DNA of 64,000 nucleotides from Escherichia coli (GCF_002854065.1 NZ_CP024147.1); one strand, 5' to 3'. Positions 29,901 to 32,900 are shown, numbered from the stretch's first letter. Notes: generated by a model not told the origin, from the letters alone. Numbers and translations are program-made.

Positions 29901-32900
29901 CTGTGCCAAACGACGTCGCAAGTCGGTTCTCGATTAGCAACGGCGGAAAAGGCATGACGGATAGTAACGGGGTTGCAATCGCCTCCCTGACCGGCACGTT
30001 AGCGGGCACGCATATGATCACGGCTCGTCTGGCTAACAGCAATGTCAGCGATGCACAGCCAATGACGTTTGTGGCGGATAAAGACAGAGCGGTTGTCGTT
30101 CTACAAACATCGAAAGCGGAAATCATTGGGAATGGCGTGGATGAGACGACTCTGACAGCAACAGTGAAAGATCCTTTTGATAACGTGGTTAAAAATCTGT
30201 CAGTAGTCTTCCGCACCTCCCCTGCAGACACGCAACTGAGTCTGAACGCGCGTAATACTAATGAGAACGGTATTGCTGAAGTTACCCTTAAGGGCACGGT
30301 TTTGGGTGTTCATACAGCCGAAGCCATACTGCTTAACGGCAACAGAGATACGAAGATAGTCAATATTGCGCCCGATGCCAGCAACGCGCAGGTCACCCTG
30401 AACATCCCTGCACAACAGGTGGTGACGAATAACAGCGACAGCGTGCAGCTGACGGCGACGGTGAAAGATCCGTCGAATCATCCGGTGGCGGGAATAACGG
30501 TGAACTTCACCATGCCACAGGACGTGGCGGCAAACTTTACCCTTGAAAATAACGGTATTGCCATCACTCAGGCCAATGGCGAAGCGCATGTCACGCTCAA
30601 AGGTAAAAAAGCGGGCACACATACGGTAACCGCAACGCTGGGTAACAATAATGCCAGCGATGCGCAACCAGTCACCTTCGTGGCGGATAAGGACAGCGCA
30701 GTTGTCGTTTTGCAAACATCGAAAGCGGAAATCATTGGGAATGGCGTGGATGAGACGACTCTGACGGCAACAGTGAAAGATCCTTTTGATAACGCAGTAA
30801 AAGATCTACAGGTCACCTTCAGTACCAACCCGGCAGATACTCAACTTAGTCAGAGCAAAAGCAATACTAACGACAGTGGTGTGGCTGAAGTTACTCTTAA
30901 GGGCACGGTTTTGGGTGTTCATACAGTCGAAGCCACACTGCTTAACGGCAATGGCTATACGACGACAGTCAATATTGCGCCCGATGCCAGCAACGCGCAG
31001 GTCACCCTGAACATCCCTGCTCAACAGGTGGTGACGAATAACAGTGACAGCGTGCAGCTTACGGCGATGGTGAAAGATCCGTCGAATCATCCGGTGGCGG
31101 GGATAACGGTAAACTTCACCATGCCACAGGACGTTGCGGCAAACTTTACCCTTGAAAATAACGGTATTGCCATCACTCAGGCCAATGGGGAAGCGCATGT
31201 CACGCTGAAAGGTAAAAAAGCGGGCACGCATACGGTTACCGCAACGCTGGGTAATAACAATACCAGTGATTCGCAGCCGGTAACATTTGTGGCGGACAAA
31301 ACCTCGGCTCAGGTTGTCCTGCAGATGTCAAAAGATGAGATCACAGGTAATGGCGTCGATAACGCAACGCTAACTGCAACGGTTAAAGATCAGTTCGACA
31401 ATGAGGTGAATAATCTTCCGGTAACATTCAGCTCAGCCTCTTCAGGACTCACCCTGACCCCGGGAGTAAGTAATACCAATGAGTCTGGCATCGCGCAGGC
31501 CACTCTCGCAGGCGTTGCCTTTGGTGAGCAGACGGTCACTGCATCACTGGCTAATAATGGTGCCAGCGACAACAAAACTGTGCATTTTATTGGCGACACA
31601 GCGGCGGCAAAAATTATCGAGTTGACGCCTGTCCCAGACAGCATAATCGCCGGTACCCCGCAGAACAGCTCCGGCAGCGTCATCACCGCCACAGTCGTTG
31701 ATAATAATGGCTTTCCGGTGAAAGGTGTGACTGTGAACTTCACCAGCAACGCAGCGACAGCCGAAATGACGAACGGCGGTCAAGCCGTGACGAACGAACA
31801 GGGTAAGGCTACCGTCACTTATACCAATACCCGCTCCTCGATAGAATCAGGAGCGAGACCGGATACCGTTGAGGCCAGTCTGGAAAATGGTAGCTCCACG
31901 CTTAGCACATCAATTAATGTCAACGCTGATGCGTCTACGGCACATCTCACCTTGCTACAGGCACTCTTTGATACAGTCTCCGCAGGCGACACTACCAATC
32001 TGTATATTGAGGTGAAGGATAATTACGGCAACGGAGTACCCCAGCAGGAGGTAACCCTCAGAGTATCACCAAGTGAAGGCGTGACCCTCAGTAATAACGC
32101 TATATATACTACCAACCACGACGGCAATTTTTACGCAAGCTTTACCGCTACAAAAGCCGGGGTTTATCAAGTGACGGCAACCCTCGACAATGGCGATTCG
32201 ATGCAACAAACAGTGACCTATGTGCCGAACGTCGCGAATGCTGAAATCACGCTGGCAGCCTCGAAGGATCCGGTGATTGCCGACAATAACGATCTCACGA
32301 CACTAACAGCAACAGTCGCTGATACAGAGGGCAATGCGATAGCCAACACTGAGGTAACATTTACTCTGCCGGAAGATGTGAGGACGAACTTCACGCTGAG
32401 CGATGGCGGTAAAGCGGTTACTGATGCCAATGGCAAAGCGAAAGTCACGCTGAAAGGTACAAAAGCAGGCGCTCATACTGTTACAGCATCGATAACTGGC
32501 GGTAAGAGTGAGCAGTTGGTGGTGAACTTTACTGCGGATACGCTCACTGCGCAGGTTAATCTTAACGTTACCGAGGACAATTTTATCGCTAATAACGTCG
32601 GGATGACCAGGCTGCAGGCAACAGTGACTGATGGAAACGGCAACCCGTTAGCCAATGAGGCGGTGACATTCACACTACCGGCAGATGTGAGCGCAAGCTT
32701 TACTCTCGGACAAGGCGGTTCCGCCATTACTGACATCAACGGCAAGGCTGAAGTTACACTGAGCGGTACAAAATCCGGCACCTATCCCGTGACAGTTAGC
32801 GTGAACAGTTACGGTGTCAGTGATACGAAGCCGGTGACTTTGATTGCCGATGCTGGTACCGCTAAACTGGCTGGTTTTACCGCATCATCGGGCTCATTTA

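Follow-up and report, generated by a model that had tools for sequence, protein, structure and literature searches.

The surface proteins Bap, alpha C protein, and Esp carry in-frame repeats of whole domains, and homologous exchange between the repeats changes their number, the length of the protein, and its exposure. In Gram-positive surface proteins such repeats are usually many and identical, and they vary at readily observed frequencies. Among the inverse autotransporters, Yersinia ruckeri YrIlm and YrInv are described as having almost identical tandem Ig domains (Wrobel et al. 2018, as cited in PMC6714894). For YeeJ of Escherichia coli, Martinez-Gil et al. (2017) described two length variants, that of MG1655 (2358 aa) and a long one of UMN026 (PMC5595812). 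The extra 906-bp fragment of the long variant was reported to contain three additional Big domains and to be "a repeated section of sequence", and biofilm assays, the only published functional comparison, showed no functional difference between long and short YeeJ (PMC5595812).

The window analysed in this study is a stretch of 64,000 nucleotides of Escherichia coli DNA. The window contained a yeeJ coding sequence at 26966-34969 on the plus strand (annotated start used), with a product of 2667 aa, which is the long allele. A coding sequence (WP_196613699.1) equal to it in length and position was found in strain CUWW06, with 100% identity across the 2,501 nt compared (29400-31900). The order mtfA, tRNA-Asn, yeeJ, a family-9 glycosyltransferase (GT9) gene, and shiA was that of the K-12 yeeJ locus, the DNA was more than 95% identical to K-12 yeeJ for most of the gene, and related alleles bear the RefSeq name "inverse autotransporter adhesin(-like protein) YeeJ". 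Pfam analysis showed an N-terminal inverse-autotransporter beta-barrel (IAT_beta, PF11924) at aa 144-419 (E = 2e-112) and, C-terminal to the barrel, Big_1/Invasin_D3 matches from about aa 533 to about aa 2460. The LysM domain, which has been demonstrated experimentally for YeeJ (PMC5595812), gave only a partial Pfam match at aa 79-99 (E = 0.56). The C-terminal tip was the region of greatest divergence between alleles, and a Pfam scan of the 1028-residue C-terminal piece produced an Invasin_D4 match (E = 5e-4; residues 835-904 of the piece, about aa 2474-2543) and no match to a lectin model. Judged by these features the gene is yeeJ, and its product is predicted to be an inverse autotransporter (type Ve) adhesin in which a beta-barrel is followed by many Big_1/invasin-type Ig-like domains in a row and by a tip at the C-terminus.

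Two adjacent units within yeeJ, U1 at 30062-30670 and U2 at 30671-31279 (both on the plus strand), aligned without gaps, with 540 of 609 nt identical (88.7%) and 69 differing sites. The longest exact runs shared by the units were 54 nt (30358-30411), 53 nt (30527-30579), and 53 nt (30104-30156), and a repeat finder independently returned a spacing of 609. Both units are in the yeeJ frame, the 609 nt correspond to 203 codons, and 179 of the 203 residues were identical. Pfam placed two Big_1 domains in each unit, here named A and B, so that U1 (aa 1033-1235) consists of A1 (about 30062-30367) and B1 (about 30368-30670), and U2 (aa 1236-1438) consists of A2 (about 30671-30976) and B2 (about 30977-31279). 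The protein identity between the units was 81/102 in the first domain (A) and 98/101 in the second (B). The repeat was measured by ungapped offset scans, the longest period of Tandem Repeats Finder being 500. When the whole gene was compared with itself, the offset of 609 reached 96.7% in its best 150-nt segment, while the runner-up pair in yeeJ reached 69% (offset 309; 32309 versus 32618) and shuffled sequence at most 43%. The likeness of U1 and U2 was far above chance, and the other domain pairs of yeeJ were much more diverged. The original prediction had described colinear, mostly identical units that encode the same 203-aa block of two Ig-like domains within yeeJ, set in a much more diverged Big_1 array, and all of this held; the lower limit of about 80% identity which it had placed on a self-comparison lies below the value found.

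The identity between the units was uneven: it was about 92% in the head (unit positions 1-123) but 66% over a patch of 93 nt, with 90-97% elsewhere. The divergent patch lies in A1 (30185-30277, plus strand; unit positions 124-216), with its partner in A2 at 30794-30886. The 340-nt centre, at 30278-30617 on the plus strand (unit positions 217-556; partner 30887-31226), contained the longest identical runs and most of the crossover points, and the tail occupies unit positions 557-609. The right limit of the repeat is A3 (31280-31585, plus strand), an older and far more diverged A-type domain that follows U2; segment by segment, its identity to A1 and A2 fell from 66-67% (head) to 54-58% (patch) and 40-46% (tail), and the repeat finder reported it as a 63% third copy (family D1). 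On the minus strand, an ORF of 171 aa (30200-30715) has a near-identical twin of 141 aa (30806-31231), and a second pair of antisense ORFs (29767-30297 and 30568-30828) also has near-identical translations. All of these antisense ORFs are wholly within the yeeJ coding frame, and there was no feature annotated there in any record fetched. The pairs are mechanical by-products of the repeat and not genes, and the original prediction was right to call them spurious.

The same prediction had called the duplication recent, and this part was not supported. A simple recent duplication, with units alike through short elapsed time and no later exchange, would account for the high identity and the long exact runs between U1 and U2, and for the far greater divergence of the remaining array. 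In a comparison of seven divergent long alleles, however, U1 and U2 were each orthologous in all seven: identity was 91-98% between U1 units (95-98% without the converted unit of XJ6-3), 93-100% between U2 units, and 88-93% between U1 and U2. The U1 of the window matched the U1 of the six other long alleles at 93-98%, and its U2 matched the orthologous U2 units at 93-100%. Since each unit is orthologous across these alleles, the duplication predates their split. The synonymous divergence (dS) between U1 and U2 was 0.23 outside the 93-nt patch, 3-6 times as high as the value between alleles in the 3.1 kb of yeeJ that lie upstream (0.035-0.086), and 1.54 (saturated) inside the patch. A recent duplication also fits poorly with the strongly mosaic divergence of the units (head about 8%, patch about 30-34%, centre 5%, tail 16%) and with clear conversion tracts in two strains, and is considered very unlikely. 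On the sequence comparisons, the repeat is better described as an old duplication whose copies were homogenised in part, and "recent" is the wrong word. Species-representative genomes were searched for the junction between units with a degenerate DNA pattern (SD[AS]QP[VM]TFVADK), and none matched.

The mosaic was resolved by counting mean mismatches for each segment of the unit, between U1 and U2 within an allele and between orthologous units of different alleles. In the head, the within-allele U1-U2 mean was 9.4, compared with 4.1 for U1-U1 and 3.3 for U2-U2; in the patch, the corresponding values were 27.9, 9.2, and 6.7, and in the tail 8.7, 2.2, and 1.7. The values for the centre were 16.7, 13.5, and 14.1, and because paralogues there are barely more different than orthologues, the centre looks homogenised by exchange between the copies. 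The similarity of the central 340 nt thus looks better explained by gene conversion. A U2-type patch was present in the U1 unit of XJ6-3 and in the single unit of ET5, and these are the two conversion tracts mentioned above.

Protein-level selection that keeps old duplicate units alike, with neither recency nor gene conversion, would agree with the dN/dS of 0.05 between U1 and U2 in domain B and with the near-identity of its residues. It is nevertheless held to be exceedingly unlikely, as constraint on the protein does not keep synonymous sites unchanged, and dS was 0.12-0.24 in the centre and in domain B but reached about 1.5 in the patch beside them; the exact-identity runs of 53-54 nt also speak against it. 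Three further proposals were rejected or found no support. The patch was not copied from another yeeJ domain, the best match elsewhere in the gene being at most 58% for either version of the patch. Positive selection in the patch was without support (dN/dS 0.19, with dS saturated). Concerted evolution of the whole unit, with paralogues closer than orthologues, was rejected, as U1 and U2 are orthologous and homogenisation was restricted to the central 340 nt.

Copy number was surveyed in 5,426 complete E. coli genomes, about 2,900 of which contain this portion of yeeJ. The counts of one- and three-unit alleles are lower bounds from the matches listed, some class counts are estimates from evenly sampled matches, and exact counts are blurred because BLAST pieces 609 bp apart get joined into one place. 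In 1,223 genomes the U1-to-U2 junction that marks two units was found with an identity of at least 90%. One unit was found in at least 40 genomes, in which flank, unit, and flank formed a continuous 1,209-bp match and the coding sequence was 7374 or 7398 nt. Three units were found in at least 22 genomes among the best 60 matches, with coding sequences of 8613, 8616, or 8592 nt, and a second unit junction was found in 34 genomes. More than three units were not seen in the complete genomes, the highest place count being equal to that of the three-unit alleles. The yeeJ products fell into at least four length classes, of about 2358 aa, 2457-2465 aa, 2660-2667 aa, and 2863-2871 aa. Variation of stalk length between isolates, as expected in the original prediction, was thus borne out by the one-, two-, and three-unit alleles (at least 40, about 1,200, and at least 22 genomes, respectively).

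All the single units examined had a U1-type start and a U2-type end, with at least four distinct breakpoints. In TR01 the switch lay at unit positions 96-104, and the unit fitted a chimera of O157 U1 (1-96) and U2 (105-609) with 1 mismatch; TR01 was the sole single-unit O157:H7 seen, and its record could be an assembly collapse. The switch was at 286-328 in E47 (2 mismatches), 211-245 in Santai/CP53, 555-579 in ET5, and about 284-335 in FDAARGOS_1277. In the three-unit alleles the middle unit was compared with units 1 and 3 of the same allele, and in 6 of the 7 examined it changed from a unit 3-like head to a unit 1-like tail. The switch in the middle unit was at 543-585 in JNE21-009 and 1190, 396-465 in SCU-102, 211-257 in GF60, 336-396 in G6/7 (on a 7983-type background), and 207-257 in 18KM2445. 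The middle unit of VCSW7 was unit 3-like (U2-like) almost to its end, which implies either that the crossover lay within a few bases of the end or that a conversion followed it. The three-unit alleles had at least three distinct breakpoints and different backgrounds (coding sequences of 8592 versus 8613 nt), and the variety of breakpoints and allele backgrounds shows that there were several independent events. Single-breakpoint fits were imperfect for several three-unit alleles (47-61 of 56-68 sites), which suggests that later conversion or inter-allele exchange blurred the breakpoints, and several middle units had 5-10 private differences. The crossover intervals were all in well-matched segments, and none was within the divergent patch.

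The single unit with a U1 head and a U2 tail and the middle unit with a U2 head and a U1 tail are the reciprocal products of unequal homologous exchange. This is the behaviour that had been foreseen for the repeat as a substrate of recombination. Mis-assembly, either of the duplication itself or of the one- and three-unit alleles, was weighed against these counts. Short-read assemblies do break at this place, and a protein search with one unit gave 27 matches, nearly all of them partial YeeJ fragments on contigs of 350-1000 bp. Many laboratories have nonetheless produced complete genomes, about 1,200 in all, with the same two-unit structure and orthologous units, the same Santai-type one-unit allele was common to more than 20 independent genomes, and Japanese and UK strains have an identical three-unit protein (WP_228356359.1) in their annotation. 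The units also differ at 69 sites and are easy to resolve, and an assembly artefact is almost certainly not the explanation. The copy-number alleles appear stable within lineages, to judge by these shared sequences.

The K-12/BL21-type yeeJ (7077 nt, 2358 aa) was without window positions 30175-31080 on the plus strand (906 nt), which correspond to the published 906-bp fragment. The missing stretch extends from within A1 through the whole of B1 and A2 into B2, and the remaining parts of A1 and B2 are fused in frame as a hybrid domain. A motif search showed that the 11-nt motif GTGAAAGATCC, which codes for V-K-D-P, occurs once per domain, in A1 (30164-30174, plus strand), B1 (30461), A2 (30773), and B2 (31070-31080), and the copy in A1 is the left junction of the deletion. 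The K-12-type sequence was that of A1 up to GTGAAAGATCC and then that of B2, and it agreed with the predicted hybrid at 98.7%. Read from this junction, the published 906-bp difference, to which the original prediction had not linked the repeat, is an in-frame deletion of three domains at an 11-nt identity and not a whole number of units. The junction was present in about 1,600 genomes (an estimate), and its wide sharing marks it as a single old event that spread. The K-12-type allele may have descended from a parent with two units, by the loss of 906 bp, or from a parent with one unit, by the loss of 297 bp.

The observations are very probably accounted for by an old duplication, conversion in its centre, unequal exchange that gave the one- and three-unit alleles, and a separate microhomology deletion that gave the K-12 allele. 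According to this sequence of events, the 609-bp A+B module would have been present twice in the stalk of the long allele through a duplication that is old relative to the sampled alleles, and gene conversion between the copies would have homogenised the centre while the ends and the 93-nt patch remained distinct. Identical tracts of up to 54 nt would permit the copies to misalign and exchange, by RecA-dependent unequal crossing over or sister-strand exchange. One product would be a one-unit allele (U1 head and U2 tail) and the reciprocal a three-unit allele (with a middle unit of U2 head and U1 tail), and each such exchange would lengthen or shorten the stalk by two Ig domains without a frameshift. 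The K-12-type allele would stem from one microhomology deletion, which took out three domains between the copy of GTGAAAGATCC in A1 and that in B2, and would have become widespread afterwards. Judging from the rod dimensions published for invasin, each unit should change the length of the stalk by about 7-8 nm.

Efficient RecA pairing in E. coli has a minimum of about 25 nt. The identical tracts of 53-54 nt exceed this minimum and fit homology-guided misalignment, by which we infer that the 609-bp events arose. RecA-independent slippage or sister-strand misalignment, in place of RecA-mediated unequal crossing over, is a live alternative source of the copy-number alleles, though on balance the less likely one. 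The K-12 junction uses an identity of 11 nt, less than RecA needs to pair efficiently, and Lovett and colleagues reportedly found that in E. coli a tandem repeat with a length of several hundred bp can be deleted by both RecA-dependent and RecA-independent routes. The position of the 609-bp breakpoints in well-matched segments, and of none in the patch, is expected under either homology-guided route and does not discriminate between them. The private differences in several middle units hint that different alleles exchanged sequence following DNA transfer, which would require recombination. For the exchange by unequal homologous recombination favoured here, the rate is probably low and on an evolutionary rather than a clonal timescale, because the mismatch-repair barrier should act on units that differ by about 11%; this is consistent with the lineage-stable alleles.

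The yeeJ repeat could also be viewed as a length-switching device, with frequent gain and loss of units and conversion of the patch under host selection. If true, length switching would match the reach of the stalk to how thick the O-antigen or capsule layer is, or would vary an exposed epitope. Recurrent events and the persistence of both reciprocal products in nature speak for such a device, while the alleles look lineage-stable and the sole published assay was without a functional difference between lengths; the proposal is regarded as very doubtful. A phase-variable contingency locus was rejected, as Tandem Repeats Finder, applied to 26-36 kb, detected no short-unit repeats beyond trivial ones of 2 copies and a period of 8-13 nt, and all the unit changes were in frame.

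The copy-variable repeat is real, but it is an instance of a textbook phenomenon, and both the length variation of yeeJ and its repeated fragment had been reported before. What the present analysis adds is the one- and three-unit alleles, the mapping of breakpoints, the evidence of conversion, and the origin of the K-12 allele, and a search of the accessible literature found no description of further yeeJ copy-number alleles, breakpoints, or the A1/B2 fusion. These details are useful for annotation and for users of YeeJ, matter modestly, and will not surprise a specialist. YeeJ serves as a scaffold for surface display, and surveys of adhesins and studies of host association include it in their counts, and for both uses the occurrence of yeeJ in at least four length classes is of practical note. 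The K-12 YeeJ contains a hybrid Ig domain made by deletion. Short-read assemblies fragment at the repeat, which makes calls of presence or intactness, and variant calls in 30.0-31.3 kb, unreliable. The locus is also a clean natural case in which both reciprocal products of unequal exchange, together with conversion tracts, can be read from genomes.

Of the systems described at the outset, the YeeJ variants of MG1655 and UMN026 are the closest, being the same gene at the same locus, and the window has the long UMN026-type. The published account has two variants only (PMC5595812), whereas here the long form was resolved as 2 x 609 bp and one-unit and three-unit alleles were added. The present analysis further mapped chimeric breakpoints and explained the short allele as an A1/B2 fusion at the 11-nt motif, both of which go beyond that account. 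YeeJ resembles YrIlm and YrInv of Y. ruckeri, as far as the citing account describes them, in being of type Ve, in having near-identical Ig domains in the passenger, in that the number of repeats shapes the length of the stalk, and in the complication of assembly. It is set apart from them, by that description, in having 1-3 copies of a two-domain module with about 11% divergence and not a long array of near-identical single domains. The simple-sequence contingency loci share with yeeJ a repeat-mediated change of a surface structure; unlike them, yeeJ has no short-unit repeats, its length changes in frame with no on/off switch, and its rate of change is probably much lower. As in Bap, alpha C protein, and Esp, the in-frame tandem repeats of YeeJ encode whole domains, but those proteins belong to other families and secretion routes, and the YeeJ alleles appear to be lineage-stable.

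A large protein collection was searched with one 609-bp repeat unit of yeeJ, and the search returned proteins P0001-P0027. Nearly all of these were partial YeeJ fragments from contigs of 340-1000 bp, and some of the fragments represented up to ~250 member sequences each. Such fragments indicate that the yeeJ repeat is a regular break point of short-read assemblies, and calls made from draft genomes are therefore unreliable there. The presence of yeeJ, its intactness, and variant calls in the repeat region should not be trusted in draft genomes.

All four repeat domains contained a single copy of the 11-nt motif GTGAAAGATCC, at window positions 30164, 30461, 30773, and 31070; the motif codes for V-K-D-P, part of the conserved 'TATVKDP' strand. 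In principle, these copies could provide junctions for in-frame deletions of 297, 609, and 906 bp; among the three, a microhomology junction at the motif was observed only for the 906-bp deletion, which distinguishes the K-12-type short yeeJ from the long allele. The second-best internal repeat of yeeJ paired 32309-32458 with 32618-32767 at an offset of 309. Three successive single Ig domains (window 32149, 32458, and 32767) were spaced at 309 nt with ~68-71% identity, and this arrangement points to an older round of single-domain duplication.

Several complete genomes had yeeJ broken by insertion sequences. IS1203/IS3 elements were located within the gene in O157 strain 644-PT8, F374, and 7.1_Anguil, while in FDAARGOS_1277 the gene was split by IS3 and IS2. 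In the coordinates of the genome records, the interruptions were at 5885-7098 (L013), 2474-3687 (L020), and 3646-4859 and 10568-11796 (L015). The yeeJ of EC21Z-101 carried an internal stop. Inactivation of yeeJ is therefore a second common route to variation at this locus.

Directly downstream of yeeJ, a family-9 glycosyltransferase gene was found on the minus strand (window 35231-36346). The gene was whole in most of the compared genomes with the long yeeJ allele, and was frameshifted, carried a stop, or was split by IS1 in TR01, LR-62-2, BL21(DE3), and EC21Z-101. This gene may have a functional connection with yeeJ, and the two may decay together. Strain CUWW06 was 100% identical to the window over the 2.5 kb compared, and in this strain an IS5 separates the glycosyltransferase gene from shiA (L001 13037-14017). 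The window apparently lacks this IS5 at ~36350-36600, since shiA (36598-37914) is the next feature after the glycosyltransferase gene. The window thus derives from a strain closely related to CUWW06, not from the CUWW06 record itself.

The window allele was compared with the yeeJ alleles of O157, K-12, and BL21. The first 5.8 kb showed 94-100% identity, whereas the distal third, including the C-terminal tip, showed 66-86% identity, with the divergent segments at window 32770-33560 and 34566-34969. The distal part of the window allele was also longer by 21 nt (8004 vs 7983 nt for the whole gene). Given this contrast in identity between the first 5.8 kb and the distal third, the tip of the YeeJ adhesin occurs in the form of distinct allelic cassettes.
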